A stretch of DNA of 64,000 bases from an uncultured Mycoplasma sp. (GCA_946500895.1 CAMMXG010000003.1:99-64098), one strand, 5' to 3'; counted from the stretch's first letter, positions 12,191 through 28,218 are shown. The notes: a model not told the origin generated them from the sequence alone. Numbers and translations are program-made.

Positions 12191-12715
12191 ATGGAGAAAG
12201 AGAGAAATTTGGCTTCTATTGAAGAGAAAGCATATCAACTTCGAATCAAAAAAGAAATGACACAAAAAGAATTTGCGAAAATGTTGGATGTTTCTATTAG
12301 TTATGTTTCAAATTGGGAAAATGGATATAATGAGATAACGATTCCTTTATTAAATAAAATTTGTAATATTTGTGATGTTTCTTTTGATTTTATGATGGGA
12401 TTTAGTAAAAAGAAAAATAATACCTCAAAAATAATAGAAGTTGATAAAAAATATTTAGGGAAAAGATTAAAGGAAATTAGAAAAAATGAGGGATTAACAC
12501 AAGAGAAAATGGCAAAGAGAATTAATACTTATCGTTTTCTAATTAGTGATTATGAAACCGGTAGGAAAAGTATTAGTACAGCTGATTTAAAACAAATATG
12601 TGAAACTTTTGGTTATAGTGCTGATTGGTGTGTTGGTAAACTTAAGGATTGTATTCGTTATAAGCCTGTTAAAAAGCTAAAAGCGCGAGATGTAAAAGGT
12701 TTAATATCTAGTTAA
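12191..12715 (+). CDS. XRE-family regulator with two tandem HTH domains (paralogue of 11047-11499)
   Basis: Same double-HTH layout (MTQKEFAKMLDVS..., LTQEKMAKRINT...). RBS GAGG upstream. Confidence 0.8.
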   Translation: MEKERNLASIEEKAYQLRIKKEMTQKEFAKMLDVSISYVSNWENGYNEITIPLLNKICNICDVSFDFMMGFSKKKNNTSKIIEVDKKYLGKRLKEIRKNEGLTQEKMAKRINTYRFLISDYETGRKSISTADLKQICETFGYSADWCVGKLKDCIRYKPVKKLKARDVKGLISS

Positions 12716-12891
12716 ACAAAAAGAAGTAACATTTATTTTGCTGCTTCTTTTTAGATATTACTCTTCGAAATCGTTAATACTTATAATATTAGATTGAGAT
12801 CAAAGATAAAATATGTACATAAGTAATACCTGTTGTACATATTTTTATTTTATTCACTCATCATTTATTTATTAAACCTCTTTTTACCAGT

Positions 12892-14829
12892 TTATTTTAA
12901 TAAATATTCATACATACTATATTTAATTATATTAGCACTTAAAGTAAAACGATTAGATACTAGATTGTTCATACTAGTTACATATTCCGTTGTGTTTTCT
13001 AAAGTTACGCCTTCTTTTAGAGTAAACTTACCATTTTTATAAGTTCCATAATCACTTACCCAACTGCGATTAGAAAAGATGGCCAATCCTGGTGCATCAC
13101 TTAATATATCTTTTCCGACAATTAGTCTTGAATCATATTCTACGCCAAATAAATTTAGAAGAGTCGGTAAGACATCAATCCCGCTGCCAACTTTATCTAC
13201 TTCAACTGTTTCTATCTCACTATTCCAAAGAATAAAATTACTACGATTTACTTCTACTATTTCATCACGTTCATAATCACTTAATTCATTTACTTCATCA
13301 ATTGTTAAAGTATATGGGTAATGGTCTCCTACTAAAGCGATTACAGTATCTTCTAAAATGCCCTCTGCTTCTAAACCATCAATTAAAGCTTCTAGGGCTC
13401 TATCTAATTCTATTTGCGTTGCTAAATAAGCTTTAACATTGTTTGAATATGGTAAGTCTTTTACATATTGAATATTTTTTAGAGCAATGGAATTACCAGT
13501 AGAATTATAGGCATAAGGTGCATGACCAGAAACAGTTACATAATAAGTTACAAATGGTGTATTATCTTGATATAATGGTAAAGTTTGATTAATCATATCA
13601 ACATCACTTGGAAGCCAACTACAATTAATTAAATCTTCCATACCATTTCCACAGCCCATATAAGAAGTAAATCCTAATGTTTCCATTGTTTTTTGTCTAC
13701 TATAATAGGTATATGTCCAGTTATGATAACCATTAGCGGTATATCCAAGATTACTAAAAGCATTTCCTAAAGCATAAGATATCGTTGGCTCTGACTTTTT
13801 CCAATCAGATAATATGGACTGAGTTGGAATAAGTCCCGTTGTTGCTTGAAATTCACCACCAGTAGTACTTAAAAATACCGGTGAATAAAAATTATTAAAG
13901 ACAAAGCCTTCATGACTTAATTTATATAGTGTTGGTGTTAGTTCTGGGTCAACGGCAATCATGTTAAAGCCTTCTGCAAGAATAAAGATTAAGTTTTTTC
14001 CTTCAAACATACCTGTATATTCATTTTTATTGGTAGCATCACTATTTTTAAAATATTCTAACATGCTTTTTATTGTACTATTGGTTTCATTGGCAATTAA
14101 AGTATCAAAATCAATTTCTATTTCGTTATAAGTTGGTACAACTTCTTCCGGTTCTTCCTCTTCGGGAATGTTTGGGATATCGGGTTCCTCATTCATTGTC
14201 AATTTTTCTTCAAAGCCAAATAACACTCTTTTAACATCTAGCCTTGTGTAAGTAAATAATCCAAAAGTTTCCACTGTTTTAGATTCACTATTAATATTGT
14301 AATATAGATTATAAGCTGAATAAGTATCATTTTTATTTATGTTTAAACATAATAAGGAAATTATCCATATTAAAATAGTAGCAATAAAACATATTAATAT
14401 TTTCTTTAGACTAGCTCTTTCAAAATTTATGCGTTTTTGGAATATAATTAAAAGAATAATTGGTAACAAATAAAGAATTACTACCCAAATGTTTTTTATG
14501 ACAACATCAAATATAATATTTGTAAAATCAAGAGCGTTGCTAGCCAGTCCTAAAGTATTAAAAGAAAATATATTGCTAAATAATCTGTGGAAGAAAAATT
14601 GAAAACAATAATAAATTACAAAGACTACACTTATGATGTAAGTTAACACCACATTTCCTTTTTTCTTAAATATGTTTGTTATTAAATATAAAATTAATAT
14701 AATAGGAATACTAAAAAGCAAAGTTAAAAGAATGCCACTAAAACTCTTAGTGACGAATATTTTGGTTAGTATTTCTAAATAAATAATTAAAAAGCTTAAA
14801 TAAAATATGACATTAAACTGCTTCTTCAT
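12892..14829 (-). CDS. LTA-synthase-family sulfatase-fold phosphotransferase
   Basis: Five N-terminal TM helices plus an extracellular domain with FILAEGFN...TTGGEFQATTGLIP (metal/nucleophile Thr region) and VGDHYPY motifs. Confidence 0.8.
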   Translation of the reverse strand: MKKQFNVIFYLSFLIIYLEILTKIFVTKSFSGILLTLLFSIPIILILYLITNIFKKKGNVVLTYIISVVFVIYYCFQFFFHRLFSNIFSFNTLGLASNALDFTNIIFDVVIKNIWVVILYLLPIILLIIFQKRINFERASLKKILICFIATILIWIISLLCLNINKNDTYSAYNLYYNINSESKTVETFGLFTYTRLDVKRVLFGFEEKLTMNEEPDIPNIPEEEEPEEVVPTYNEIEIDFDTLIANETNSTIKSMLEYFKNSDATNKNEYTGMFEGKNLIFILAEGFNMIAVDPELTPTLYKLSHEGFVFNNFYSPVFLSTTGGEFQATTGLIPTQSILSDWKKSEPTISYALGNAFSNLGYTANGYHNWTYTYYSRQKTMETLGFTSYMGCGNGMEDLINCSWLPSDVDMINQTLPLYQDNTPFVTYYVTVSGHAPYAYNSTGNSIALKNIQYVKDLPYSNNVKAYLATQIELDRALEALIDGLEAEGILEDTVIALVGDHYPYTLTIDEVNELSDYERDEIVEVNRSNFILWNSEIETVEVDKVGSGIDVLPTLLNLFGVEYDSRLIVGKDILSDAPGLAIFSNRSWVSDYGTYKNGKFTLKEGVTLENTTEYVTSMNNLVSNRFTLSANIIKYSMYEYLLK

Positions 14830-14927
14830 AATTTCACCTAAATTTATTATATCAAAATTTAGAATAATTAAAAGATTAACTTTGCTTTTTTTCGATTTTT
14901 ATGTATAATTGTGTTAGGTGATGATGA

Positions 14928-15356
14928 ATGAAAAAAATATGGAGTCTTTATCATAAATATGAAGAAATTATTAATTATTTAATTGTTGGAGGATTAACTA
15001 CTGTTATTAGCTTAGCTGTTAAATATGGTCTTTTATTTACAGTATTGGATGCTAGCGATGCAGTAGAATTACAAGCAGCAGTTATTATTTCTTGGATTAT
15101 AGCAGTCGCTTTTGCTTATATTACTAATCGGATATTTGTTTTTCATTCTAAATCAAAACAATATTTAAAAGAAATTAGTGGATTTGTCGCTGGTAGAATT
15201 GCTACTTTAATTATGGAAATGGTTATTATGTGGTTCTTCGTTACATTACTTGGTTTAGATAGTAATTTATGGGTTATTGTTTGGACTATTGTAGCTCAGA
15301 TATTAGTTATTGTTGGTAATTATGTTATTAGTAAATTATTTGTATTTAAAAAATAA
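14928..15356 (+). CDS. GtrA-family membrane protein (polyprenyl-P-sugar flippase candidate)
   Basis: 142 aa with 4 TM helices; YLIVGGLTTVISL and NRIFVF motifs are typical of GtrA/GtcA. Confidence 0.85.
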   Translation: MKKIWSLYHKYEEIINYLIVGGLTTVISLAVKYGLLFTVLDASDAVELQAAVIISWIIAVAFAYITNRIFVFHSKSKQYLKEISGFVAGRIATLIMEMVIMWFFVTLLGLDSNLWVIVWTIVAQILVIVGNYVISKLFVFKK

Positions 15357-15365
15357 TTCATACAA

Positions 15366-15396
15366 GCCTTAAGTCGTATAGATTTAAGGTTTTTAT
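15366..15396 (+). terminator. intrinsic terminator after gtrA
   Basis: GCCTTAA / TTAAGG stem followed by TTTTT. Confidence 0.5.
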
Positions 15397-15467
15397 ATTG
15401 TTTAAATGTTCGCTTGTTTTTCTATATAGGAAATGATAGAATATTGTTGGTTTAGAAAGGAAAATTT

Positions 15468-15632
15468 ATGGACGATTTTATAAAATATCTTTTAGTAACT
15501 GACCAACTTGATGAAGTATTTTGGGGTAAGAAAAAAGAAGCAGAAGATGAGGAAGTTTTGAAAAGAACTTTGAGAAAAAAAGATGATAAAGAAGATAATA
15601 GTCATAAAAATTCTAGTTCATTTACAAAATAA
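15468..15632 (+). CDS. small acidic/basic hypothetical protein (54 aa)
   Basis: ATG with AAAGGAAAA upstream; MDDFIKYLLVTDQLDEVFWGKKKEAEDEEVLKRTLRKKDDKEDNSHKNSSSFTK. Below the ORF-track cutoff. Sits directly upstream of the left uvrB start. Confidence 0.35.
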   Translation: MDDFIKYLLVTDQLDEVFWGKKKEAEDEEVLKRTLRKKDDKEDNSHKNSSSFTK

Positions 15633-15650
15633 TTAGGAAAGGAGTTTTTT

Positions 15651-15959
15651 ATGTTTGAGTTAATATCAAAATATAAACCTAGTGGAGACCAACCACAAGC
15701 GATTGAAAAGTTAGTTAAAGGAATTAATGAGGGCAAGAAAGAACAAGTTTTACTGGGTGCTACTGGTACGGGTAAAACGTTTACGGTTGCTAATGTTATT
15801 AAGGAAGTGAATATGCCTACCCTTGTTTTAGCTCATAATAAAACTTTAGCAGGTCAACTTTATTCAGAATTAAAAGAACTTTTTCCAAATAATCATGTAG
15901 AGTACTTTGTTAGCTATTACGATTATATTGCACACTCCCCTATTTTTAGTACTATTTAA
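15651..15959 (+). pseudogene. uvrB: uvrB 5' remnant (codons 1-92, then 10 unrelated codons and a stop)
   Basis: Nucleotides 15651-15926 align without gaps to 26272-26547 (11 mismatches in 276 nt by manual alignment). Keeps an AAGGAG RBS and the Walker A motif GATGTGKT. Homology ends abruptly after ...YYDY. Confidence 0.9.
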
Positions 15960-16019
15960 TCCCAAAAAATCTTTTAATTAATACTAATTAATACTAGATA
16001 TTACCAATTAATTGAATAA

Positions 16020-16044
16020 AATTTGTGACCTTGTTTCGTGTAAA
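16020..16044 (+). repeat. left copy of 25-bp direct repeat AATTTGTGACCTTG(T/A)TTCGTGTAAA
   Basis: 24/25 identical to 26130-26154. Preceded at 15941-15960 by TATTTTTAGTACTATTTAAT, which matches 26081-26098. Confidence 0.8.
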
Positions 16045-16747
16045 TTCGTGTAAGCATATAGATATACATTTTTTTCTGTTTTATTTTTATGCTATAATTT
16101 TTATATAAAATAAAAGCGTGAATATATGAAAAGTTTAGTTGCATTAAAGTATAAGAATATTTCTTACAAGAAAACTTTGCCACGTTTTTTTATCATGTTA
16201 TTGACCTTTATAATAAAAATGAAAATTTGATAGTTGGAGTTGCTTTTCATGGTAACTATTTGCAGTTTAAATCTCTTGGTAATGCTAATCTTATTGTTAT
16301 TAATAATAAAGATAATTTGCTTTTAGACGAGTAATTTCAATATCTCTAATAATTCTAATGATATTGAGATGTTTCCTTTTGGAGGCTGTGATTATATATT
16401 CATGGAAAAAATATAAAGAATGTGTTAATGAAGAGACTGCTAGAGCAAGAAAATCACATTTAAAGAAACATCAGGATAGAAAAGCATTTGAAAATAGCTT
16501 TTTAGATGATACACAAATTTGAACAATTATATTCTTCATATAATTTTCCTGATGTTAAAGGTATTGGGATTATTTAGAATTTTATTTCTATTTTGGCGAG
16601 CTGGTGTTAGAATAGATATATTAATATAAAAGAAGTAATACTTCATCATAAAGAAAATAAGGATGATTCAAATATCATTTTTACATTATATGGAAAAATC
16701 TATAGATTAGATAATAAAAACTAATATGGCTAAATAGCTAAAAAATG

Positions 16748-16776
16748 TTGACTTTAAAAAAGATATGTATTATTAT
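16748..16776 (+). promoter_or_regulatory. sigma70-type promoter of the island operon
   Basis: TTGACT (16748-16753), 17-nt spacer, TATTAT (16771-16776, reading on as TATTATAAT). Confidence 0.5.
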
Positions 16777-16856
16777 AATAACCCAGTTGGGGGTATTTAC
16801 ATGACAAATAACGACTTTTTTAAATATGGAAATGCAAAAATTTTAAAGATAAATAA

Positions 16857-16896
16857 AAGTGCCTAAATTTTATTAGATTTTTAGACACTTTTTTTA
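16857..16896 (+). terminator. terminator-like hairpin in the operon leader (possible attenuator)
   Basis: AAGTGCCTAAA (16857-16867) pairs with TTTAGACACTT (16880-16890) with one mismatch, followed by a T run. Overlaps the stop of a 21-codon leader ORF (16801-16866) and lies 20 nt before the first operon gene. Confidence 0.4.
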
Positions 16897-16915
16897 TATA
16901 GAAAGAAGGTAGTTT

Positions 16916-17440
16916 ATGGTTTATATTGGAGTTTTATGGAATACTGTAAATCACTTGAGAGAAGAAATATTACAAGATACTAATAATTTTGGTAAAGTGA
17001 TAAACTATTTTGATTGTGATTTAGGTAAAGATTACAATAATTTTGTAAGAAAAATTTATCAATCAGATGGCATTGCTGAATGGAAAGTTGATTTAAAATT
17101 ACAAGCAATGAATATAACGCCAAGTACACATTTAACAATATTTTTTATAGATATTGATGATAGTGAAAAAGAATTAAACGACAGAAAACATAAAATAGTG
17201 TCGGTAAATATGGAAAGAATGAAAAACTCAATTAGGAACAAATACTCACAGATGATTCAAAATTATTTTTTTGATAATGTTTTTCATATGACAGATGATG
17301 AAACAGAACTGGCCAATACGTTAGAAGTAATTAAGGAGTATTTTCCGAACATATATAATGAGTACTTTGAAATTAAGGAAGATACTAATGTTAGAATTAG
17401 AAGAAAAAATGGAAAAGGAGCAGATAAAAATGAAGATTAA
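16916..17440 (+). CDS. hypothetical protein (first gene of the island operon)
   Basis: 174-aa ORF with a GAAGG RBS; overlaps the next start by 11 nt. No confident family assignment by eye. Confidence 0.6.
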   Translation: MVYIGVLWNTVNHLREEILQDTNNFGKVINYFDCDLGKDYNNFVRKIYQSDGIAEWKVDLKLQAMNITPSTHLTIFFIDIDDSEKELNDRKHKIVSVNMERMKNSIRNKYSQMIQNYFFDNVFHMTDDETELANTLEVIKEYFPNIYNEYFEIKEDTNVRIRRKNGKGADKNED

Positions 17441-18284
17441 TAATAAGGAAATTGATGAAAAAAAACCATATGTTATCGCAGAAATCGGCATAAATCATAA
17501 TGGAAGTTTAGATTTAGCAAAAATACTTATTGATATTGCAGTAGAATGTGGATGCGATGCTGTAAAATTTCAAAAAAGAGATGTAGATACTGTTTATACA
17601 CAAGAAGAATTGTTAAAAGAGCGAATAAGCCCTTTCGGAAAAACAAATGGTGATTTAAAAAGAGGATTAGAACTTTCTTATGAAGCTTATCAGAAATTGT
17701 TTAGTTATGCCAGGGAAAAAGAAATAGATATTTTTGCAAGCCCATGGGACTCTAAATCAGTAGATTTTTTAGAGCAATTTTCTCCATGTTGTTATAAAGT
17801 CGCAAGTGCTTCTATAACAGACTATAAACTATTAGAAAAAATCAAAAAAACGGGAAAACCTGTCATTATCTCAACAGGAATGTCTACAGAAGAAGAAATA
17901 GATAACGCCATTAAAATATTTAATCAAAAAAACATTGCAATTTTAGCATGTACGAGTACATATCCAACAGACGATTCAGAAATTAATTTGAATAAAATTA
18001 AAACTTTAAAAAAGAAATATCCTAAAATACCTATAGGATATTCAGGACATGAAAGAGATATTTTCCCTTCGCTAATTGCAGTAGCTTTAGGAGCGTGCAT
18101 TATAGAACGTCACATTACTATAAGTAAAGATATATGGGGAAGCGATCAAAGGGCATCTTTAGAACCGAAGGAATTAAAAGAATTAGTAACTGGCATAAAA
18201 AGAGTGAAAACAATTATGGGAGATGGCAAGATAACAGTATATGATAGTGAACAACCAATTAAGAAAAAATTAAGAAGATATTAG
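17430..18284 (+). CDS. NeuB-family PEP-dependent ulosonic-acid synthase lacking the C-terminal SAF domain
   Basis: Start at the ATG at 17430 (AAGGAG upstream). PYVIAEIGINHNGSLDLAK, DAVKFQ, GYSGHE and IIERHIT motifs are typical of NeuB/SpsE TIM barrels. The protein ends about where the SAF/antifreeze-like domain normally begins. Confidence 0.8.
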   Translation: MKINNKEIDEKKPYVIAEIGINHNGSLDLAKILIDIAVECGCDAVKFQKRDVDTVYTQEELLKERISPFGKTNGDLKRGLELSYEAYQKLFSYAREKEIDIFASPWDSKSVDFLEQFSPCCYKVASASITDYKLLEKIKKTGKPVIISTGMSTEEEIDNAIKIFNQKNIAILACTSTYPTDDSEINLNKIKTLKKKYPKIPIGYSGHERDIFPSLIAVALGACIIERHITISKDIWGSDQRASLEPKELKELVTGIKRVKTIMGDGKITVYDSEQPIKKKLRRY

Positions 18285-18295
18285 GGATGGTTATT

Positions 18296-19450
18296 ATGCA
18301 TAATTTTGAGTTTTTTAATCCAACAAAAATTATATTTGGTGAAAATAAAATTGAAAGCGTTTGTCAATATATTAAGAACTATACATCAACAAATAATATT
18401 TTATTGGTTATTTCTGAAAGTTGTAAAAATAATGGAGTGCTAAAAACAGTAACTAATCAACTAGAAAAAAATAGTATTCAATACTATATTGTTGATGGCA
18501 TTATCCCTAATCCTACTTTAGATAAAGTTTACTATGGAAAAAAAATAATTCAAAATAACAATATAGATTTTATTTTAGCAATTGGAGGAGCTTCTGTAAT
18601 AGACACTGCAAAAACAATTGCAGTTGCTTCTTGTCATAATGAAGATATATGGGATTTAATATGTAATCCAACAAATATAAAAAAATCATTACCTTTAGGA
18701 GTAGTTATTACACTATATGGCTCAGGAACGGAAATGACAAATGGTGCAGTTATTTCAAACATGATGATTACTAAAAAAAGAGGTTTTGATAATGTAAATA
18801 TGTTTCCAAAATTTTCAATATTAGATCCAACTACTTTAAAGAGTTGCAGCCATGAATATCTATCAATAGGATGTATGGATATGTTTACGCATATTATGGA
18901 AGATTATTTTGAAATTACAGACGAAGAAAACTTAGCCGATAGTTTTCAAGAATTATTGGTTAAAAAGATGATAATTGAATTTAAAAAACTAAACAACAAT
19001 AAACAGGATAACGCAAAACTGTTGTGGATGAGTACCTTAGCTCAAAACAAATTTTTATCATTCGGGAAAAAATATAATGGTGAATGGGTAGCACATATCA
19101 TAGGACACGAATTTTGTGTCAGATACAATTTACCACATGGGCAAGTTGTAGCCATTCTTTTTATAGCATGGTTAAATTTTATAAAGAAAATAAATGAGAA
19201 AAGGATAATTCAATTTGGCGTATCAGTATTCGATTTAAAATCTCCTACTTCTACCGAAGTTATAGATGAAATCAAAAAAGTCTATGCTCTACTTAACAAT
19301 ACTTTTACTTTAAAAGATTTAGGAGTCAGGTTAGAAGATATTGATGATATTGTAACGAATGCTATGAATGGTAAAAAATTAGGAAAATTTAAAGAGCTAA
19401 ATAAAGAAGATGTAAAAAATATTATTATGGAGGCTTACAATGGAAATTAA
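18296..19450 (+). CDS. iron-containing (group III) alcohol dehydrogenase family protein
   Basis: FNPTKIIFGEN start, GGASVIDTAK nucleotide-binding motif, and His cluster HIIGHEF...LPHGQ, as in YqhD/BdhA-type enzymes. An alternative ATG at 18287 is possible. Confidence 0.8.
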   Translation: MHNFEFFNPTKIIFGENKIESVCQYIKNYTSTNNILLVISESCKNNGVLKTVTNQLEKNSIQYYIVDGIIPNPTLDKVYYGKKIIQNNNIDFILAIGGASVIDTAKTIAVASCHNEDIWDLICNPTNIKKSLPLGVVITLYGSGTEMTNGAVISNMMITKKRGFDNVNMFPKFSILDPTTLKSCSHEYLSIGCMDMFTHIMEDYFEITDEENLADSFQELLVKKMIIEFKKLNNNKQDNAKLLWMSTLAQNKFLSFGKKYNGEWVAHIIGHEFCVRYNLPHGQVVAILFIAWLNFIKKINEKRIIQFGVSVFDLKSPTSTEVIDEIKKVYALLNNTFTLKDLGVRLEDIDDIVTNAMNGKKLGKFKELNKEDVKNIIMEAYNGN

Positions 19451-20774
19451 ATCACAGAAAGACTTAATAAGTATAGATAAAAAATGGAAAAACATAAAAT
19501 TTAAAGACTCAGAAATACATATTAAAAACATTAAAGATTTCATTACCGATGAACACATCGATATTATTGTTAGATATCTCTATATTAAATCATATATTGA
19601 AGGTGTTAAATATGACAAATACAAAATGATGTACGAAAAAATGATGAAAAAAAGAGTAAATAAAAGTTATTATAATGAATTTAATAAAATTATAAACTCC
19701 TTTAGAAAACATGGATATTTAAAAGAATATCCAATTCCAATTAATAACAAAGGGAAAATGTTAAATGGCTCTCACCGCTTAGCTTGCTGTTTGTATTTTA
19801 ACATTAATCCATATGTTTGTATTTTTGACGAGGAAGATCACGAGTATAATATTAAATGGTTTCACGAAAATGGATTTACTTCTGAAGAGATTATAGAAAT
19901 CGAAAAAACAAAAGAAGAAGTATTAAAAAAATATAGTTTTAACAAAGTATATTTAAAAAATGTATATGCAGCCACAATAACTCCAATTAAAAATGAAAAT
20001 TTAGAAACTGATTATTTTTACAAACATATTAGCACTCTGAAAAAAAATAATATTGATGGGTTATTTTTATGTGGGAACACAGGCAATGGCATGAATCTAA
20101 ATTTTGACCTAAAAAAAGAAGTATTAGAGTATGTGAATAAAATTTCCAAAGAATATTCTTTAATTTTTCACGTCGGTTCTCAAAATACTCAGGATATTGA
20201 AAAAATGATAGCCTTGATTAATAAATCAAATGTTTCTTGCATTGCTTCTATGCCTCCATACCACATAATAGCAAAATTTAATGAAATCAAACAGTTTTAT
20301 GAACGAATTGCCAAATTATCTACTAAGCCAGTATTAATATATCATATTCCAAATATAACTGGAATCAACTTACCTGCGGAAGAAATCATTGAATTGCTAA
20401 GCATTAATAATGTCATAGGAATTAAATATACTGATGCCGATTTAGAAAAGCTGAAAACCATAAGCGAAAATGTAAAAGATAAATATATTTTTTATGGTAA
20501 AGATGATTTGCTATTGAATGGACTTTTGAATGGTGCTAATGCTGGAATAGGAGGCTGTTATAATATTTTTCCAAGTTTTATTTACAAAATAATGAATGGA
20601 AACACATATGCAGAAAGGCTAGATAATCAAAATAAGTTAAATTATGCTATAAAAGTACTAAGGAAAAAATTCCCAACTTTACCTGGAAGCGAATTTGTTT
20701 CAGAAGTATTAAAAATAAAAGCCGATAAAACAGATGAAGAGTTTTATAGATTGTTGGAGGAAGAACATGATTAA
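19440..20774 (+). CDS. fusion protein: ParB/Srx-like N-terminal domain + DHDPS/N-acetylneuraminate-lyase-family class I aldolase
   Basis: N-terminal half has ...PINNKGKMLNGSHRLACCLY (ParB-like DGxHR-type motif). C-terminal half has GLFLCGNTGNG, PVLIYHIP and the Schiff-base-type GIKYT motif of the DapA/NanA family. Confidence 0.7.
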   Translation: MEIKSQKDLISIDKKWKNIKFKDSEIHIKNIKDFITDEHIDIIVRYLYIKSYIEGVKYDKYKMMYEKMMKKRVNKSYYNEFNKIINSFRKHGYLKEYPIPINNKGKMLNGSHRLACCLYFNINPYVCIFDEEDHEYNIKWFHENGFTSEEIIEIEKTKEEVLKKYSFNKVYLKNVYAATITPIKNENLETDYFYKHISTLKKNNIDGLFLCGNTGNGMNLNFDLKKEVLEYVNKISKEYSLIFHVGSQNTQDIEKMIALINKSNVSCIASMPPYHIIAKFNEIKQFYERIAKLSTKPVLIYHIPNITGINLPAEEIIELLSINNVIGIKYTDADLEKLKTISENVKDKYIFYGKDDLLLNGLLNGANAGIGGCYNIFPSFIYKIMNGNTYAERLDNQNKLNYAIKVLRKKFPTLPGSEFVSEVLKIKADKTDEEFYRLLEEEHD

Positions 20775-21828
20775 ATTAGTTGTTTTCGATATTGATGGAG
20801 TATTAACTGATGGCAGTTATTTAATAGATCATTTAGGAAATGAATACAAAAGGATTTGCTTTAAAGACTTAGATAGTTTTAACTTATTAAAACAATTAAA
20901 TATTAAAACTATGTTTTTAACCAGCGAGGCAAATTTTTTAAGCAAATATTTCCAAAAAAAGTTTAACCCTAATTATTTCTTTGATGGAGTAGCAGATAAA
21001 TTTAAAGTATTAACAGATTTCTGTACAAAAAATAATTATAATTTACAAGAAGTATGTTACGTTGGTGATGGCAAAAAAGATTTAGAAGCTATGAAAAATG
21101 TTGGATTATCTATTGCCCCACGCAATAGTATTAGAGAAATAAAGCAAATTGCAACATGCAATCTTGAAGTAGCAGGAGGAAGCGGAGTAGTTTACGAGGT
21201 TTATAATATATTATTAAATATTAACACCGAGTATACTGATAATAATACTTTAAAAAGAATTTTAAATGAACATAAAGCAATTTTATCAAATATGGAAAAT
21301 AATCAGGAACTATTAAATCAATTAAAGCAATCGATAGATATTATTATTAATGCATTAAGAAATAAAAAAATAATATATGCTTGTGGCAATGGTGGAAGTG
21401 CCTCTGATGCACAACACTTTGTAGCAGAATTAATTAGCAAATTTAATTATAATCGTAAATCATTAGGAGCGGTTTCATTAACTACTAATCCTTCGATTAT
21501 AACTTCTATTGGAAATGACTACAATTTCGATAATATATTTAAAAGGCAAATCGAGGGATTGGGTAATAATGGAGATGTTCTTGTTGCACTAAGTACAAGT
21601 GGAAATTCTAATAATATAGTTTTAGCTATAAAGGAAGCATTGGCAAAAGGAATGAAAGTAATATTTTTTACATCAGAAAAATGCAACTCACTTGATAACG
21701 AAAATATGGTTATCTTAAAAGTTCCAAGTTCTGTAACACCGAGAATACAAGAAATTCACATTATGCTAATTCATTACTTATGTGAAGAAATAGAAAATTA
21801 TTTTATGGAGGAAAAAAATGAAAAGTAA
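20767..21828 (+). CDS. fusion protein: KdsC-type HAD phosphatase + GmhA-type SIS sugar-phosphate isomerase
   Basis: Start at the ATG at 20767 (GGAGG upstream, ATGA-type overlap with the preceding stop). N-terminal VVFDIDGVLTDG...YVGDGKKDLEAM (KdsC subfamily). C-terminal CGNGGSASDAQHFVAEL...STSGNSNN...RIQEIHIMLIH is near-canonical GmhA. Confidence 0.8.
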   Translation: MIKLVVFDIDGVLTDGSYLIDHLGNEYKRICFKDLDSFNLLKQLNIKTMFLTSEANFLSKYFQKKFNPNYFFDGVADKFKVLTDFCTKNNYNLQEVCYVGDGKKDLEAMKNVGLSIAPRNSIREIKQIATCNLEVAGGSGVVYEVYNILLNINTEYTDNNTLKRILNEHKAILSNMENNQELLNQLKQSIDIIINALRNKKIIYACGNGGSASDAQHFVAELISKFNYNRKSLGAVSLTTNPSIITSIGNDYNFDNIFKRQIEGLGNNGDVLVALSTSGNSNNIVLAIKEALAKGMKVIFFTSEKCNSLDNENMVILKVPSSVTPRIQEIHIMLIHYLCEEIENYFMEEKNEK

Positions 21829-22963
21829 AACAATATGGCACGTTGGAGGTTATAATCGGAATTATGGTGATTTTGTTCTTTTAGAATCAATTAGAGAAAA
21901 TTTGGAAAAACAATCAGATATACCTCTTAATTTTGTAAATATTGACTGTCAAAGCACTCATTTTTTTAGTGAATTAATTGATGAATTAAATGAAAAAGCA
22001 GATATGCTATTAATTGGGGGTGGAGGATTTATTATGAACCGACACGAAGACAATAGCTTATCTGGATGGCAATGGAGTATCAAAAATGAAGATATAAACA
22101 GAATAAAAGTACCAATAGTTGTTTATGGAATAGGTTATAATAAATTTTACTATGACAATAGAGGGTTTAAAGAACAAATGAACGAATCTTTACTTCTTAC
22201 TCAAAATAAAGCAAAATTATTTTCTGTAAGAAATAATGGTACAAAGGAAGAATTAATAAATAGAGGTTTAAATAAGGATAAAATAGAAGTAATTCCTGAT
22301 TCAGGAATGTTTATTACACCCCTAAAAATAAATGCAAACTTTCTAAATCAAAACAGAATGCTTATAGGCTTAAACTTTGTTTCTGACAGACCACAATTTA
22401 CCTTTCCTGATGATTACAACCAAAGCAAAAGTGAAATTATGAATGAGCTGCTAAAAGCTTGCAAATATTTTATAAAAAAATATAATGCATTAATACTTAA
22501 TATAGATCATATTCTCGGTTTAGATGATGAAATTAATGACTTGTTCAAAAGAGAATTAGGGAAAAATTATTTAGTACTATCAGAGGAGCTCCCGCAAATT
22601 TATCCGCCATCATTGGTAAATGCTCATTTTTTAGCATACATATATCAACAAATGAGTTTTGTAATTGGAATGAGAGGACATTCAAATATTATATCTTTTG
22701 GTATGGGAACACCATTTATTGCAATGGGAACTCATAATAAAAATAGATTTTTTACAAAAGACATTGGAGAAGAGAAATATTTGATAGATTTAAGGGACTA
22801 TAAAATTAGTGCAAAATGTGATATAATCATTAAGAAATCTGAAGAACTATTGCAAGATTCTGATTATAAACAAAGAGCAAAAATAAAAAGAAATAAATTA
22901 AAAAAGGATTTTTGCGATTTTAACAGAAAAATTATAAGGATATTAAAGGAGGAAGAAGATTAG
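21818..22963 (+). CDS. polysaccharide pyruvyl transferase family protein (CsaB/WcaK-like)
   Basis: GGYNRNYGDFVLLESI, LLIGGGGFI and R(G)HS motifs are typical of PS_pyruv_trans proteins. Confidence 0.75.
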   Translation: MKSKTIWHVGGYNRNYGDFVLLESIRENLEKQSDIPLNFVNIDCQSTHFFSELIDELNEKADMLLIGGGGFIMNRHEDNSLSGWQWSIKNEDINRIKVPIVVYGIGYNKFYYDNRGFKEQMNESLLLTQNKAKLFSVRNNGTKEELINRGLNKDKIEVIPDSGMFITPLKINANFLNQNRMLIGLNFVSDRPQFTFPDDYNQSKSEIMNELLKACKYFIKKYNALILNIDHILGLDDEINDLFKRELGKNYLVLSEELPQIYPPSLVNAHFLAYIYQQMSFVIGMRGHSNIISFGMGTPFIAMGTHNKNRFFTKDIGEEKYLIDLRDYKISAKCDIIIKKSEELLQDSDYKQRAKIKRNKLKKDFCDFNRKIIRILKEEED

Positions 22964-22964
22964 T

Positions 22965-23450
22965 ATGGAAATTTTAGATTTATATGATGACTTTGGTCAA
23001 AAATTAAAAGAAACAATAAATAGAGGCGAAAAAACAGAAGAAGGAAAAAATATTATGCTATCTGTAGCTTTTATAAAAAATAGCAAGGGTGAATTTTTAA
23101 TTCAAAAAACTTCTAAAGAAAAAGGAAATAGATATTCTTCAACAGGCGGTCATGTAATGCATGGAGAAACAGGATTAGAAACAATAAAAAGAGAATTAGA
23201 AGAAGAATTAGGAATTAGTGCTACAGAGCAGGATTTAAAATACATTGCAACTTTTAAATATCCAAAAAAGAACTGCATTTTTAATGTCTACTTGCTAAAT
23301 ATAGATATTGACTTATCAAAAATAAAATTACAAGATGAAGAAGTTGAAAGCGTAAAATATCTTTCTGTAGAAGAAATTAATAATATCATTAATAAAGGGA
23401 ATTTCTTAGAATCACACGCTTATATATTCAAGCACTATATTAATAACTAA
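22965..23450 (+). CDS. NUDIX hydrolase
   Basis: Complete Nudix box GGHVMHGETGLETIKRELEEELGI. Confidence 0.85.
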   Translation: MEILDLYDDFGQKLKETINRGEKTEEGKNIMLSVAFIKNSKGEFLIQKTSKEKGNRYSSTGGHVMHGETGLETIKRELEEELGISATEQDLKYIATFKYPKKNCIFNVYLLNIDIDLSKIKLQDEEVESVKYLSVEEINNIINKGNFLESHAYIFKHYINN

Positions 23451-23475
23451 AGCTTTTAGATAGGGGGCGTTACTA

Positions 23476-25662
23476 ATGAGTGAAGAACTAATTGAAAAAG
23501 AAAAATTAAAAAACACTTTATTAATTATAAAACAAGTATTAGAGTCTGAAAAAGATGGCTTAAATAACTTGTTTGATAGTTTTATTGGAAATCGAGAGCA
23601 ATTATGGAAAATTGCAGAGCAAAAAAAGATTCACATACAAAATTTAGAAGCATCATTAGATAAACCATATTTTGCTAGAATAGATTTCAGCTTTGAAGAT
23701 AGTAATGAGATAAAAACAGTCTATATTGGTAAAAATGGTATAATGAAAGATACTGATGTTATTGTTACAGACTGGAGAGCTCCGATTTCTTCATTATATT
23801 ATGATTCTGAAATAGGTCATTGCAGCTTTATAGCACCAGAAGGAAAAATGGAAGGTGATTTAAGTTTAAAAAGGCAATATGAAATAGAAAAAGGTAGTTT
23901 ATTAAGCTATCATGACGTTGATTTAGTTTCAAACGATGCCCTATTACAGAAATATCTTGATAGCAATAACGATTCAAGAATGAAAAGCATAGTTTCTACA
24001 ATACAAAAAGAACAAAATGATGTAATCAGAAAAAAATTATTTGACAATTTAATAATCCAAGGAGTTGCTGGTTCAGGAAAAACAACAGTAGCATTACATA
24101 GAATGGCTTATTTAGTATATAACTACCGAGATTCTATAAAACAAAGTCAATATTTAGTAATTGGACCAAATCCAGTTTTTCTTAAGTATATTAGTTCTGT
24201 ATTACCCGAATTAGATGTAGCAAGTGTTAAACAAAGTACTTTTGAAGAATTTGCTCAAGATTACATTGGTGAAAAAATTAATATAAATTCTTCGGATAAA
24301 AAAGTAGCAAAAAGTATTGCTGGAAAAATTGATAATGATATAGACAAATTTAAGTCATCAATGAGTTATAAAAATATGCTAGATCAATTTTTAAAAATTT
24401 ATTATTATAGTTTAACTTCTAAAGACTTAGAATTAGATGATTTTATTGTGCTTAAGGCTAACGATATAAAGCAAATTTTTGACAGCACTTTTACAGATAA
24501 TATAAGTCTTGCATCTAGAGTAGATTTAACTATCGAAAAATTAACTAGAGTTATTGAAAATAATATGGATTTATTAATTTCTAATTTTACAGATTATTCA
24601 GTAAAAAAATTTGATAGCGTTAAAGGTACAGAAGGACAAGATAAACTTAGAAAAAAATTAGCTAAAAGTAGAGAAGAACTTCACAAATTTTGTAGAAGTA
24701 CCTTGCGAAAATATTTTTCAAAAGCAAAAATAGATGCTACTAAATTATATAAATTGTTTATAAGTTCTATTGAAAATTATAATATTTTCAAATATCCAAA
24801 TTTAAAATTATTAAAGAAAGAAACCATGCAGAATATAAAAGAAGGACATTACGATTTTGAAGATTTAGCTGCATTAATATATTTACAACATTCTATATCT
24901 CCAAATGTGGATTACAATCAAATTAGACACGTAGTAGTAGATGAGGCACAAGATTTGGGAGAATTTAATTTCTATGTGTTAAAAGAAGCCTTGCCATCAT
25001 CAACATTTAGTATTTTTGGAGATTTAGCACAATCTATTTATGATTATCGTGGTATCAACAATTGGAATATAGTAAATAACATTATGTTTGAGAATAAAGG
25101 AACAATTATAGACTTTAAGAAAAGTTATCGTACAACATCAGAAATAATGGAAGTAGCTGATGAAGTTGCAGAAAATATAGGAATGCTTCGTTCCAATCTA
25201 GTTGTTAGACACGGTAAAGACGTCGACTTTACTATGCTCGAGCAAAACGAAATACCTAGCTATATAGCCCAAAAAATCGAGGAATTTAAAAACAAAGGCT
25301 ATAAAACTATTGCTGTAATTAGCAAAACGAACTTATTATCATGTTATATCAACGATGATTTAGCAGAATTGGGGATAAGAATACCAAATATTACTTTAAA
25401 TGATGATTTGACAGATGAAAGATTTAAAATATGCACTATTTCTAATCAACTAGCAAAAGGATTAGAATTTGATGCAGTTATTATCAATAATGCGAGTGAA
25501 GATATCTATTCTTCATCTAATAATTTAGACATGAAACTTCTATATGTAGCAATAACTAGAGCTCTACATGAACTTGATATTGTTTATTCAGGGAATTTAA
25601 CATTACCATTACAGTCATTTATTAAAAAAAAAGGTGATAATTTAAAATTATCTCTAAATTAA
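23476..25662 (+). CDS. helD: HelD-type UvrD/helicase IV-like superfamily-1 ATPase
   Basis: N-terminal coiled-coil followed by YFARIDF...YIGK...WRAPISSLYY, Walker A GVAGSGKTT, DEAQD Walker B, and C-terminal LYVAITRAL. Confidence 0.8.
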   Translation: MSEELIEKEKLKNTLLIIKQVLESEKDGLNNLFDSFIGNREQLWKIAEQKKIHIQNLEASLDKPYFARIDFSFEDSNEIKTVYIGKNGIMKDTDVIVTDWRAPISSLYYDSEIGHCSFIAPEGKMEGDLSLKRQYEIEKGSLLSYHDVDLVSNDALLQKYLDSNNDSRMKSIVSTIQKEQNDVIRKKLFDNLIIQGVAGSGKTTVALHRMAYLVYNYRDSIKQSQYLVIGPNPVFLKYISSVLPELDVASVKQSTFEEFAQDYIGEKININSSDKKVAKSIAGKIDNDIDKFKSSMSYKNMLDQFLKIYYYSLTSKDLELDDFIVLKANDIKQIFDSTFTDNISLASRVDLTIEKLTRVIENNMDLLISNFTDYSVKKFDSVKGTEGQDKLRKKLAKSREELHKFCRSTLRKYFSKAKIDATKLYKLFISSIENYNIFKYPNLKLLKKETMQNIKEGHYDFEDLAALIYLQHSISPNVDYNQIRHVVVDEAQDLGEFNFYVLKEALPSSTFSIFGDLAQSIYDYRGINNWNIVNNIMFENKGTIIDFKKSYRTTSEIMEVADEVAENIGMLRSNLVVRHGKDVDFTMLEQNEIPSYIAQKIEEFKNKGYKTIAVISKTNLLSCYINDDLAELGIRIPNITLNDDLTDERFKICTISNQLAKGLEFDAVIINNASEDIYSSSNNLDMKLLYVAITRALHELDIVYSGNLTLPLQSFIKKKGDNLKLSLN

Positions 25663-25675
25663 AAAAAAATTAGAA

Positions 25676-25710
25676 GGCGAAGATTAGTCACAAAATCTTT
25701 GTCTTTTTTT
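25676..25710 (+). terminator. intrinsic terminator ending the island operon
   Basis: 10-bp stem GGCGAAGATT / AATCTTTGTC (with G-U pairs), 8-nt loop, T7 run. Confidence 0.7.
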
Positions 25711-26011
25711 AAAAGTTTGAAATTCCATATCCATATATGACACTACTATCTATAGAATATTCTTTTTCTCTACAAATTTTATCACTAGAATTACCTTCAA
25801 TAGTATAAAAGATGGTTTAATATTCCCGACATATTGTTTGATGAAATATTAGAATAACGCAAAATATATGAAAGGAATAGAAAGTGTAGAATTAATGATA
25901 AAAATAATCCATTTATTGATAGCATTATTAAAGAGGATAAGTATGATATTGATTGTACTGATATTAATATAGACGAATGCTTTAAAAAATATTTTAATCT
26001 ATCTACTTATT

Positions 26012-26045
26012 AACAAGAAAATATTATTATGTTTTCTTGTTTTTA
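26012..26045 (+). terminator. intrinsic terminator after gene debris
   Basis: AACAAGAAAA / TTTTCTTGTT 10-bp stem followed by TTTT. Confidence 0.45.
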
Positions 26046-26129
26046 TATAGAATAAATGCTAAAATATATTCATCTAATATTATTTAGTACCATTTAATTT
26101 TATTATGTATTATTTAAGGCTAAATGAGA

Positions 26130-26154
26130 AATTTGTGACCTTGATTCGTGTAAA
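26130..26154 (+). repeat. right copy of the 25-bp direct repeat
   Basis: AATTTGTGACCTTGATTCGTGTAAA. Followed by two TTACACGAATTT boxes (26195-26206, 26215-26226), 20 nt apart, upstream of uvrB. Confidence 0.8.
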
Positions 26155-26271
26155 GTTAAAAATAACCTATTTTTTTAAGTTTAATTTATTCTAGTTACAC
26201 GAATTTAGTTTAGAATTACACGAATTTTTTGGTTGATAATAATCATAATAAATTTGAGAAAGGAGTAAAAA

Positions 26272-28218
26272 ATGTTTAAATTAGTGTCAAAATATAAACC
26301 TAGCGGAGACCAACCACAAGCGATTGAAAAGTTAGTTAAAGGAATTAATGAGGGCAAGAAAGAACAAGTTTTACTGGGTGCTACTGGTACGGGTAAAACG
26401 TTTACGGTTGCTAATGTTATTAAGGAAGTGAATAAACCTACCCTTGTTTTAGCTCATAATAAAACTTTAGCAGGTCAACTTTATTCGGAATTAAAAGAGC
26501 TTTTTCCAAATAATCATGTAGAGTACTTTGTAAGTTATTACGATTATTACCAACCGGAAGCTTATGTTCCATCAAGTGATACTTATATTGAAAAAGATGC
26601 ATCTATTAATGATGAAATTGATGAGTTAAGACATAGCGCTACTAGTGCTTTAATTAATTATAAAGATGTTATTGTGGTTGCTAGTGTATCTTGTATTTAT
26701 GGTATTGGTGAGAAAGAAGAATATGAAAAATCCATGCTTATTTTAAATGTAGGGCAAAAAATAAAGAGAAATGATATTATTAATCATTTGGTTGATATGA
26801 CTTATGAGAGAAATGATATTGATTTTCATCGGGGTACATTTAGAAGCCGAGGGGATATTATTGATGTTATTCCGGCAAATGAACATGCTCATGGAATTAG
26901 GATTGAACTTTTTGGTGATGAAATTGATAGAATTTGTACGTTTGACCCTGTAACCGGTGTGGTTGTTAGTGATAAAAAAACAATTACTATTTCTCCGGCT
27001 TCTCACTTTGTTACGAGCCCAGAAAAGTTAGAGGAAGCGATTAGAAGAATTCAAGCTGAACTTGATGAACGTCTTAAAGAGTTGAAAAGTGAAGGAAAGT
27101 TATTAGAAGAGCAAAGGCTTCGCGAGAGAACTAATTATGATATTGAAATGCTTAAGGAAACAGGTTTTTGTAATGGCGTTGAAAATTATTCAAGACACCT
27201 TGCTCTACGTGGTGCTGGGGAAACTCCTACTTGTTTGATTGATTTTTTTCCGAAAGATTTTTTACTAGTCGTAGATGAATCCCATGTTACTTTGCCACAA
27301 GTTAGAGGTATGTATAATGGTGATAGAATGCGAAAGCAAACTTTGGTGGATTATGGATTTCGTCTTCCTAGTGCTCTTGATAATAGGCCTTTAAACTTCC
27401 AGGAATTTGAAAGCAAAATTAATCAAGCTATCTATGTTTCAGCTACTCCTGGTGATTATGAACTTGAACACACTCATGGTGAATACGTTGAACAAATTAT
27501 TCGTCCAACTGGTTTACTTGACCCTACAATTGAAGTCAAACCAACCGAAGGACAAATCGATGATATTATTTCCGAAATACGCTTGCGAATTGAAAAAAAT
27601 GAACGAGTTTTAATTACAACGCTTACCATTCGGATGAGTGAAGAATTAACCAATTATTTAAAAGAAATGGGCATTAAAGTAGCTTATTTGCATAGTGAAA
27701 TAAAAACACTGGAACGTCTTAAAATTATTCGTGAACTAAGACTTGGGGTTTATGATTGTGTTGTTGGTATCAACTTGCTTCGAGAAGGACTTGATATCCC
27801 AGAAGTTAGTTTGATTTGTATTTTGGATGCTGATAAACAAGGATTCTTACGTAGTGAGCGAAGTCTTATTCAAACGATTGGCCGTTGTGCTAGAAATCAA
27901 AATGGTCATGTTATCATGTATGCTGATACAATGAGTGAAGCGATGGATGCCGCCATTAAAGAAACAGCACGTCGTCGGGAAATACAAGAGCAATATAACA
28001 CAGAACATCATATTATTCCTAAAACAATTTCCAAAGAAATTAAAGAAGTTGTTTCTAATGAAATTGAGAATAAAGCTCAAAAACCTAAGATGAGTAAGAA
28101 AGAAAAAGAAAATATCTTAGCAACTTTAGAAGAGGAAATGAAAGAGGCTGCTCGTAATCTTGATTTTGAACGAGCTATGGAACTTCGTGATATCTTACTT
28201 GAAATGAAAAGCAATTAA
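26272..28218 (+). CDS. uvrB: excinuclease ABC subunit B
   Basis: Full-length 648 aa: Walker [23 protein letters not shown], helicase motifs, and a C-terminal UVR domain (..[21 protein letters not shown]). Confidence 0.95.

Follow-up and report, generated by a model that had tools for sequence, protein, structure and literature searches.

Integrative and conjugative elements (ICEs) as well as integrative and mobilizable elements (IMEs) of Firmicutes integrate in the 3′ end of housekeeping genes or, less often, in their 5′ end, and one of the flanking repeats contains the gene end (PMC5704250). Their decayed derivatives, the cis-mobilizable elements (CIMEs), and the "Tyr duo", a set of two tandem tyrosine recombinases, have also been described (PMC5704250). 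Here, we report an island inserted in the 5′ end of uvrB in a 64-kb stretch of DNA (the window) assigned to an uncultured Mycoplasma sp. (GCA_946500895.1, CAMMXG010000003.1:99-64098). The host is an uncultured gut member of the Bacilli, and UvrB of the window shares 93% identity with a protein listed by NCBI under "Mycoplasma sp. CAG:776". The island is likely a decayed, integrase-less (CIME-like) remnant of a site-specific integrative element with its attachment site in uvrB codons ~89 to 95 (TATTAYGATTATTAYCAACC, encoding YYDYYQP), and the underlying mechanism was probably not a generic RecA-mediated plasmid integration.

Several described systems resemble this locus in part. The SXT element reportedly replaces the 5′ coding sequence and the promoter of prfC while the gene stays functional, as Hochhut and Waldor are said to have found in 1999, and the identity between its attP and attB is short (~17 bp). 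In the laboratory Campbell integration of a suicide plasmid with a 5′ gene fragment, the endpoint depends on which fragment was cloned, and the crossover is due to RecA. The uvrB locus is like such a product in having a truncated copy behind the native promoter, an insert, and an intact copy behind a new upstream region; however, its endpoint does not vary between lineages and goes with tyrosine recombinases. SpyCIM1, a phage-like island at mutL of Streptococcus pyogenes, interrupts the mutS-mutL operon and exerts its control by excising. Both are mobile islands at a DNA repair gene, the expression of which is influenced in the case of SpyCIM1, but the uvrB element leaves its gene intact and substitutes the promoter.

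Similar to CIMEs, the uvrB island no longer has the genes for integration and transfer, and integrase-bearing relatives use the same site (PMC5704250). In contrast to CIMEs, its repeat is unusually long (~270 nt, or 90 codons) and lies at the rarer 5′ end. SXT integrates in the 5′ end of prfC (PMC2791158), and the two cases are alike in that a tyrosine-recombinase element has entered a conserved housekeeping gene at its 5′ end. Unlike SXT, the uvrB element replaces ~90 codons, the host phylum is different, there is no functional integrase in the window, and int2, the second of two tandem recombinases in the integrase-bearing relatives, has only distant matches of 26 to 30% identity to Firmicutes phage and plasmid integrases (tblastn, phage and plasmid collections). 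Membership in the SXT/R391 family was rejected, since the target is uvrB and not prfC and no IntSXT-type integrase is present; the likeness is one of working mode and not of family. Tn5253, located in rbgA of Streptococcus pneumoniae, has an 83-bp attB, gives rise to circular intermediates, and leaves a restored site on excision (PMC8571831). Tn5253 is thus comparable as a Firmicutes ICE with a defined site inside a conserved housekeeping gene, whereas the uvrB island occupies another gene and has a ~270-nt surrogate (the element-borne replacement of the gene end) instead of an 83-bp attB; for Tn5253, excision and circles were demonstrated by experiment. No report of uvrB as an integration target was found in PMC5704250 or in full-text literature searches. 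The integration logic is known, and the new features are the uvrB target, the ~90-codon surrogate, an arm architecture conserved across Bacilli and Clostridia, and an inverted copy of the attachment core.

Results

Two copies of the uvrB 5′ end flank the island

A sequence-only reading of the window had described two collinear copies of uvrB codons 1 to 92 that differ at 11 of 276 nt and in 8 codons, 5 of them synonymously, and alignment bore this out. The copies were gap-free by MAFFT and direct comparison, with mismatches at positions 7, 9, 13, 15, 33, 164, 165, 216, 228, 261, and 264. The three nonsynonymous left/right differences are E3K, I5V, and M55K, and the translated starts are MFELISKY...NMPT for the left copy and MFKLVSKY...NKPT for the right copy. 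In a repeat search of the window, the pair was returned as a 300-nt repeat with 93% identity and a spacing of 10,621 nt; chance cannot produce such a match. The DNA between the two copies amounts to 10,345 nt (coordinates of all features are listed in Table 1).

The open reading frame (ORF) of the left copy departs from the uvrB frame past ...VSYYDY and reaches a stop 10 codons on, and the right copy opens the intact uvrB. Apart from the ribosome binding site (RBS), the DNA 5′ of the two ATGs was unrelated in the MAFFT alignment. These results agree with the proposals that the left copy has kept its native context (gtrA, a 54-codon small ORF, and an RBS) and breaks off past ...YYDY, that the right copy runs into the 648-aa uvrB, and that uvrB is thereby kept intact behind a new promoter region.

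The island is present in independent assemblies and absent from some conspecific strains

Contigs of public metagenome assemblies in ENA (labeled with L numbers) were compared with the window. Both junctions were spanned by several independent contigs from different samples (L098, L099, L100, and L101), and at least 10 contigs from different samples contained the left junction and the island; the island-positive samples include ERZ15808271 and ERZ24773264. The exact 102-aa left ORF was encoded by 16 contigs, all 16 of which carried the same island. An assembly artefact joining two strains at the shared uvrB segment would fit four contigs that end inside the repeat (L102, L103, L104, and L106). 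However, breaks at a 276-nt polymorphic repeat are the expected behavior of short-read assemblers, the spanning contigs and the 99.4 to 99.96% identity of the island between strains speak against misassembly, and the probability of such an artefact is close to nil. Both junctions are real.

An empty site with the order gtrA, the 54-codon small ORF (sORF54), and intact uvrB was found in the conspecific contigs L011 and L017, which are 98.5 to 99.3% identical to the window in the left flank and 95.9 to 99.4% identical in uvrB nt 277 to 1947. Not all relatives carry the island, and the proposal of an acquired insertion is supported. The left flank of L017 is nearer to that of the window than are the flanks of some island-bearing strains, and the empty-site strains are nested among the island strains, L011 being the more divergent one. 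Between strains, the island showed 0 to 3 single-nucleotide polymorphisms (SNPs) per 500 nt (maximum, 6), compared with up to 45 in the left flank beyond ~14,500. This low diversity relative to the flank indicates that the island block is young relative to its backgrounds.

Comparison with L010, L008, and L012 showed up to 45 SNPs per 500 nt in the region of the LtaS-like gene (window 12000 to 14500) and 0 to 8 per 500 nt from 14500 to 25400; the uneven density suggests a recombination boundary near 14,500. In L012 (8626 to 8898, corresponding to window 15885 to 15920), the left truncated copy (uvrB′) has an in-frame 36-nt deletion of nt 235 to 270 that results in a 90-aa ORF, which is consistent with the left copy as a decaying remnant.

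Relatives carry tandem recombinases next to a surrogate uvrB end, and integrase fragments remain in the window

The search for UvrB homologs returned close alleles, some of which are otherwise 98% identical to the window protein yet different across the first 88 residues (e.g., P0134). The contig encoding P0134 (L115; ERZ16268194 scaffold_2522) is from the species of the window, and that encoding P0223 (L114; ERZ16268198 scaffold_898, 50.4 kb) is from a sister species with a uvrB that is 86% identical at the nucleotide level. Immediately 5′ of uvrB, both contigs carry a sigma-70-region-4-like gene, a 74-aa gene, an HTH_17 (Xis-like) gene, and two tandem tyrosine recombinase genes, int1 and int2 (PF00589; 397 and 430 aa), the second with an Arm-DNA-bind_4 domain. 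In L114, genes for HTH regulators and a CHAP-domain protein come before this set.

The two contigs are 99 to 100% identical from −4200 to about +259 of uvrB and 80 to 88% identical beyond, with 1 difference in uvrB nt 1 to 260 compared with 34 in nt 261 to 520. This drop in identity at nt ~259 is direct evidence that the mobile unit found in both hosts comprises the regulatory region together with uvrB nt 1 to ~260. The element/host junction in both contigs lies between nt 259 and 276, and the left copy of the window ends at the same place. Relative to the native allele, 42 of 260 positions are changed in the L115 surrogate; the rest of the gene has ~6 differences per 260 nt. Searches of JGI metagenome contigs and IMG/VR returned nothing for int2 or for the 33-nt right-arm pattern.

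Fragments of the same genes were detected in the right spacer of the window. Two int2 fragments were found by tblastn: 25810-25923 corresponds to aa 272 to 309 (66%, E = 2e-10) and contains an in-frame stop, and 25906-26010 corresponds to aa 396 to 430 (89%, E = 1.5e-14). A fragment of the CHAP-domain gene is inverted in the window relative to the element. In addition, blastn aligned window positions 25905-26271 with the int2-uvrB interval of L115 and L114 at 95% identity. The int2 and CHAP fragments show that the right spacer is the wreckage of a recombination module.

The same uvrB codons are occupied in other lineages

Among the matches listed in a UvrB search of genome contigs, which did not include the species of the window, the best were metagenome-assembled genomes (MAGs) of Erysipelotrichaceae with 72 to 74% identity, and no island genes were found near uvrB in these listed best matches; the set included L063, L066, and L089. 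L063 and L089 (Acutalibacteraceae/Clostridia MAGs with UvrB 57 to 58% identical overall) have a second partial uvrB of the equivalent codons that ends ...VSYY, 5′ of the intact gene. The order in L063 (8539-9992) and L089 (1398-2853) is uvrB′, ~90 nt, AAATTTGTGACYTAAATTCGTGTAA, a 1-kb leucine-rich repeat (LRR) gene (289 aa), the motif again, ~113 nt, and intact uvrB. In these MAGs, too, the copies differ mainly at the extreme 5′ end; in L063, 16 of the 22 differences are in nt 1 to 27.

When the 102-aa left ORF was used as the query, more than 50 clusters were recovered whose products have exactly 102 aa, all ending in ...VSYY plus 12 residues with a conserved tail pattern such as DVSTFPMLSSVI, ENTSNPVLFSAI, or DSTKKIVLFGAI. 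In L119/L120, uvrB′ is followed by ParA, ParB, a SpaA-type adhesin, a sortase, and TnpV, a gene set that looks like the left part of an ICE. In a related species (L133-L135, 10001-12854), uvrB′ is followed by a 75-aa gene, a radical-SAM gene, a 184-aa gene, and intact uvrB within 2.5 kb and without an integrase; a second radical-SAM/SPASM gene is located just downstream of that uvrB. An AAATTTGTG(A/G)CC block is found ~93 nt past the junction in the L119/L120 and L133-L135 loci and, in L134, again ~112 nt 5′ of intact uvrB, with an TTTAGTGCYATTTAAT block in both arms. The shared architecture thus consists of uvrB′ to SYY(D), ~93 nt, AAATTTGTGRCC...TTCGTG, cargo, the same motif, ~112 nt, and intact uvrB. 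A fixed endpoint in the sequence for the universally conserved YYDYYQPE, with conserved arms and variable cargo, is the hallmark of site-specific integration; neither an illegitimate nor a generic homologous event would give such a pattern.

Homology-facilitated illegitimate recombination during natural transformation, with a linear donor anchored in uvrB and its other end joined illegitimately at nt 276, predicts a wholly native left copy, as is seen in L008, and a donor-like 5′ end of the right copy. However, the same codon, ~93-nt spacer, and motif would not be expected to recur as they do in L063, L089, L119, and L134, and the integrase remnants and an element identical across two species up to nt 259 would be unexplained, which makes this explanation very improbable compared with site-specific integration.

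In L066 (1-4100, a Clostridium-like MAG), an array of the motif, RhuM, an HD protein, the motif, a RhuM/Fic fusion, a 107-aa ORF, and the motif lies 5′ of uvrB. The site-ORF-site order in L066 and L063 was also considered as an integron-like cassette array, which was rejected: no integrase lies beside the L063 arrays, and the site in L063 and L089 comes with the uvrB′ duplication, as expected of att arms and not of attC.

A putative attachment core and arm motifs recur at both borders

The homology between the left and right sides ends at 15926/15927, and the junction also lies past ...SYY(D) in L063, L089, L119, and L134. The element-borne tract of L115 likewise ends between nt 259 and 276. 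The left-arm blocks stand at an equal distance (~93 nt) past the junction in these four loci, and the right-arm layout is also found 5′ of uvrB in L114, L115, L066, L063, L089, and L134. The right arm of L066 is ~80% identical to that of the window; the uvrB of this contig is frameshifted near codon 40 as assembled, and the contig ends before any uvrB′ could show.

The window contains two matches to the 20-nt core, with none expected by chance. The inverted and direct copies are 305 nt apart in the window, L114, L115, and L066, with a perfect 20/20 match in L114 and L115, and this inverted repeat brackets the surrogate RBS and codons 1 to 88. The TTCGTGTAA motif occurs 6 times in the 64 kb, compared with 0.46 expected by chance, and 5 of the 6 are at the island borders (16035 +, 16045 +, 26145 +, 26195 −, and 26216 −); its spacing of 50 and 21 to 22 nt is also found in L114, L115, and L066. 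A 26-nt AAATTTGTGACCTTGNTTCGTGTAAA is present in the window at 16019 and 26129 only, and a further block, TTTAGTACYATTTAAT, is common to both arms (15945 and 26083).

Every uvrB-site island examined is flanked by the motif AAATTTGTG(A/G)CC-N3-4-(A/T)TTCGTG(TAA), located in the window at 16019-16053 and 26129-26224, in L063 at 8903/9875, in L089 at 1762/2734, in L066 at 364/2195/3621, in L119 at ~10370, and in L134 at 10369/12742. These repeated arm blocks may be arm-type binding sites for the recombinase or Xis. A role of the arm motif as a sigma-70 promoter was rejected because the hexamer spacing does not fit, and literature searches returned nothing relevant for TTCGTGTAA.

The surrogate promoter, RBS, and 88 codons lie between the core inverted repeats and are flanked by clustered TTCGTGTAA/AAATTTGTGACC sites. 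We consider it a doubtful, though conceivable, idea that this segment acts as a recombinase-invertible or element-regulated on/off switch of uvrB; if so, it would represent control of nucleotide excision repair by a mobile element and phase-variable DNA repair. Alternatively, the inverted repeat could provide an additional core-type site. The inverted state of the 305-nt segment was seen in 0 of 18 contigs, all of which had the present orientation, and a minority state would be hidden in consensus assemblies.

The two copies differ near the island borders

When compared with the empty-site alleles, the left copy was native at nt 1 to 163 and divergent at nt 164 to 264, and the right copy was foreign in its first 33 nt and native from nt 34 on. 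The upstream region and the first codons of the right copy are foreign. The number of foreign sites in the right copy relative to the native allele was 5 in the window (to nt 33), 10 in L100 (to nt 108), 12 in L117, 23 in L116 (to nt 171), and 42 in L115 (to nt 259). These sites are largely nested, in that most sites of a shorter tract reappear in the longer tracts; L115 lacks position 15. The right copies of L003, L005, and L007 are, like that of L100, foreign to nt 108. The left copy is wholly native in L008, and those of L101, L104, and L106 differ at positions 261 and 264 only.

In every strain compared, divergence is found where the copies adjoin the island, on its left and right sides alike, in tracts of variable length. 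This clustering rules out the decay of one copy in place, as had been argued in the sequence-only reading, because such decay would spread the differences evenly. Uvr­B-like sequence was present at both ends of the incoming DNA.

The same reading had proposed a Campbell-type integration of a foreign circle with a donor uvrB 5′ segment. Taken as a mechanism, this would mean that a nonreplicating circle, which happened to carry the first 276 nt of a donor uvrB, entered by a single RecA-dependent crossover and that no site-specific recombinase took part. The topology, a foreign circle with a uvrB 5′ segment, was retained. In the window and L100, the left copy is native at its 5′ side and divergent at its 3′ side, and the right copy is the reverse, as a crossover between nt ~108 and 164 would give; a circle with 270 nt of homology could also integrate in this way, and RecA crossovers may have contributed to some re-integrations. 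A generic homologous crossover of an arbitrary circle was not supported, however. The endpoint at codons ~90 to 92 and the flanking motifs are not idiosyncratic but recur with different cargo in the distant hosts and in the many 102-aa products described above, the surrogate of L114 and L115 has tyrosine recombinase genes directly beside it, remnants of which are present in the window, and no plasmid replication or mobilization family was detected in the eight island ORFs of at least 100 aa. In addition, L008 and L101 lack the reciprocal pattern, and the foreign tract of the right copy forms a nested erosion series and not one crossover point, so that the strain-variable tracts as a whole are not accounted for by one RecA crossover. 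Generic RecA-dependent integration is therefore unlikely to have been the mechanism.

The reciprocal SNP pattern is better read as the probable result of later erosion by homologous recombination than as a mid-repeat crossover. In the simplest reading, the island once bore the full surrogate, which was overwritten from its 3′ side by native alleles or by the left copy. The extreme 5′ end of the surrogate would be spared because homology stops at the ATG, and the same reasoning accounts for the fact that, in the left copy, divergence is most persistent at positions 261 and 264. The TG at 164-165 of the left copy also occurs in the right copy of L116, which points to a possible exchange between copies or a shared older allele.

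An old in situ duplication of the uvrB 5′ end with later divergence, an ancestral island, and secondary deletion at the empty sites was also weighed against site-specific integration. The L017 allele equals left-copy nt 1 to 163 plus right-copy nt 164 onward, as a left-by-right deletion would give. However, the uneven clustering at the island borders, the correspondence of the foreign SNPs of the right copy to those of the mobile L115 surrogate, the empty site of the more divergent conspecific L011, and an island far less diverse than its flank make an ancestral duplication quite improbable. The suggestion that the direct repeats could delete the island by homologous recombination is supported as a possibility: the 276-nt repeats could still act as substrates of RecA, restoring a native-looking uvrB, and some empty sites may have arisen by such repeat deletion, with which the L017 allele is compatible.

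Features and cargo of the island

Table 1. Coordinates of the uvrB island and its borders in the 64-kb window
Feature	Position	Strand	Remarks
gtrA-family gene, native left flank	14928-15356	+	Pfam GtrA_DPMS_TM; adjoins sORF54-uvrB in empty-site L011 and L017
54-codon small ORF (sORF54), native upstream neighbor of uvrB	15468-15632	+	Same sequence directly 5′ of intact uvrB in L011 and L017
Left copy, displaced native uvrB 5′ end (codons 1-92), attL side	15651-15926	+	ORF runs on to 15959 (15651-15959, 102 aa)
TATTACGATTAT, first 12 nt of the 20-nt uvrB core; putative crossover region	15915-15926	+	Element DNA begins right after
Element left arm	15927-16053	+	TTTAGTACTATTTAAT at 15945-15960; 26-nt AAATTTGTGACCTTGTTTCGTGTAAA at 16019-16044; second TTCGTGTAA at 16045-16053
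Left spacer without long ORFs	16054-16915	.	ORFs of 60 aa or less only
174-aa hypothetical protein, first cargo gene	16916-17440	+	No Pfam/NCBIfam match; always island-linked
Cargo operon	17358-23450	+	Pfam and NCBIfam
NeuB-family synthase	17358-18284	+	
Iron-containing alcohol dehydrogenase (Fe-ADH)	18287-19450	+	
Unknown N-terminal domain fused to NanA/DapA-family aldolase	19440-20774	+	
KDN-9-P-phosphatase-like HAD fused to GmhA-like SIS domain	20734-21828	+	
CsaB-like polysaccharide pyruvyl transferase	21818-22963	+	
Nudix hydrolase	22965-23450	+	
HelD (RNA polymerase recycling motor), last cargo gene	23476-25662	+	NCBIfam HelD_BACSU, 426 bits (cutoff 419)
CHAP-domain protein pseudogene fragment, C-terminal 34 aa	25712-25813	−	tblastn with L114 CHAP, 65%, E = 1.5e-8; blastn, 80%
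Two int2 pseudogene fragments	25810-26010	+	tblastn with L114 int2
Element right arm	26083-26154	+	TTTAGTACCATTTAAT at 26083-26098; 26-nt AAATTTGTGACCTTGATTCGTGTAAA at 26129-26154
Two inverted TTCGTGTAA sites	26195-26224	−	
Inverted 20-nt uvrB core, TATTATGATTATTATCAACC	26231-26250	−	21 nt upstream of the ATG, directly 5′ of the surrogate RBS
Right copy, element-borne surrogate uvrB 5′ end	26272-26547	+	Native-type now except nt 7, 9, 13, 15, and 33
Intact chimeric uvrB, 648 aa	26272-28218	+	Precomputed Pfam: full UvrB domain set for the same protein
20-nt core in intact uvrB, TATTACGATTATTACCAACC, codons YYDYYQP, attB equivalent	26536-26555	+	Present in every uvrB examined

No long ORF is present in the ~0.95 kb to the left of the cargo (15960-16915) or in the 0.6 kb to its right (25663-26271). 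When remnants of an ICE left end were sought in the left spacer (15927-16915) by tblastx and blastn, it showed no match to other elements except for the arm motif; the spacer is probably decayed element DNA. None of the eight island ORFs of at least 100 aa matched an integrase, transposase, replication, mobilization, or conjugation family in Pfam or NCBIfam, and an Rfam scan of the island and its borders showed nothing credible. sORF54 had no Pfam or NCBIfam family match.

The family names of the cargo genes suggest a pathway for the synthesis of a keto-deoxy sugar acid and the pyruvylation of a surface polymer. Neighborhood genes encode GtrA, an LtaS-like sulfatase-family protein, and glycosyltransferases, which a surface-polymer pathway would suit. 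The 174-aa ORF overlaps the longest NeuB ORF by 83 nt, and the gene callers of related contigs use a later start giving 298 aa; the true NeuB start is probably downstream of 17358. In one strain (L004 2027-3180 / L125 5649-6802), the Fe-ADH gene of the island is split into 83- and 238-aa ORFs, which suggests the start of cargo gene loss.

HelD homologs with 74 to 77% identity are found in ordinary chromosomal contexts elsewhere in relatives, including Candidatus Caccenecus, and one of them stands beside a Nudix gene, as in the island. A donor arrangement with helD beside uvrB was rejected, since these homologs have different chromosomal neighbors. The left flank also encodes two double-HTH (XRE-type) proteins (window 11038-11487 and 12212-12640), which are 39% and 29% identical to the HTH154 regulator of the L114 element and could be older element remnants or host paralogs.

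Discussion

The event at uvrB was most likely a site-specific integration followed by decay, a reading supported by the recurrence of the endpoint with different cargo, the recombinases abutting the surrogate in relatives, and the int2 fragments in the window. In the sequence of events that we propose, a circular element would have carried, beside tandem tyrosine recombinases, a regulatory region, an RBS, and surrogate uvrB codons 1 to ~90. The attP of such a circle would consist of surrogate nt 1 to 276 joined to ATTGCACACTCC. A recombinase-mediated crossover near uvrB nt 260 to 276 would then have split the host gene, stranding the host promoter, sORF54, and codons 1 to ~90 at attL as a 102-codon dead-end ORF. 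At attR, the element promoter and surrogate codons would have been fused in frame to the remainder of the host uvrB, leaving the gene intact under element-supplied control. A full integrase-bearing element would be expected to have at its far end a truncated uvrB′ (~270 nt) followed by TTTAGTRCYATTTAAT and AAATTTGTGRCC blocks.

Deletions and at least one inversion may subsequently have removed the recombination and transfer genes, with the surface-glycan genes, the Nudix hydrolase, and HelD left as cargo. The surrogate would have been overwritten from its 3′ side by homologous recombination, either with native alleles or between the copies, such that only the first 33 nt still look foreign, and the island block may then have spread among, or swept through, conspecific strains. 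The result would be a fixed island in which attL and attR retain both arms, a structure termed a CIME (PMC5704250).

Several points weigh against this interpretation. The cargo, including HelD, looks chromosomal and not element-like, and the model does not account for where it came from. In L066, the arm motif is also found 5′ of RhuM and Fic genes, and its role could be regulatory, as an operator, rather than recombinational. The left-copy variants at nt 164 to 264 (TG, A, A, T, and C) match neither the empty-site native allele nor the L115 surrogate and need an extra assumption, namely, a fossil allele of an earlier host or an exchange with an L116-like surrogate variant. A RecA crossover within the repeat would yield the same reciprocal pattern as erosion. 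The comparison with the L114 and L115 elements covers their right ends, and a left end in common with the window island is a prediction. Finally, neither a circular attP form nor an excision product was seen.

The features of the locus agree with those of a CIME: repeats of a gene end flank the island, functional integrase and transfer genes are lacking, integrase-bearing relatives occupy the same site, and unoccupied attB sites exist in relatives. The island is not itself an ICE, as its own integrase is present only as pseudogene fragments and no relaxase, coupling protein, or type IV secretion system Pfam family was found among its ORFs. ICE-like genes were found in the relatives L114 and L119 only, and no relaxase was identified even there.

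These results point to repeated use of the uvrB stretch encoding YYDYYQPE as an attachment site by tyrosine-recombinase elements of uncultured gut Bacillota, and they offer a clear example, found in nature, of an element that brings its target gene a promoter and a surrogate 5′ end as long as 90 codons. In genome annotation, many 102-aa "ResIII/DEAD" ORFs beside uvrB are explained as attL scars, and the interval from scar to uvrB is a variable cargo slot for surface-glycan genes, radical-SAM genes, an LRR protein, or ICE modules. Because homologous recombination erodes the foreign part of the repeat, a single genome can mislead on the original mechanism. Integrase-less islands might still be moved in trans by resident elements, and an L115-type element resident in the same cell might act on the present island in this way. 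The expression of uvrB in island strains would now depend on element-derived regulatory DNA, which could affect DNA damage responses in gut bacteria.

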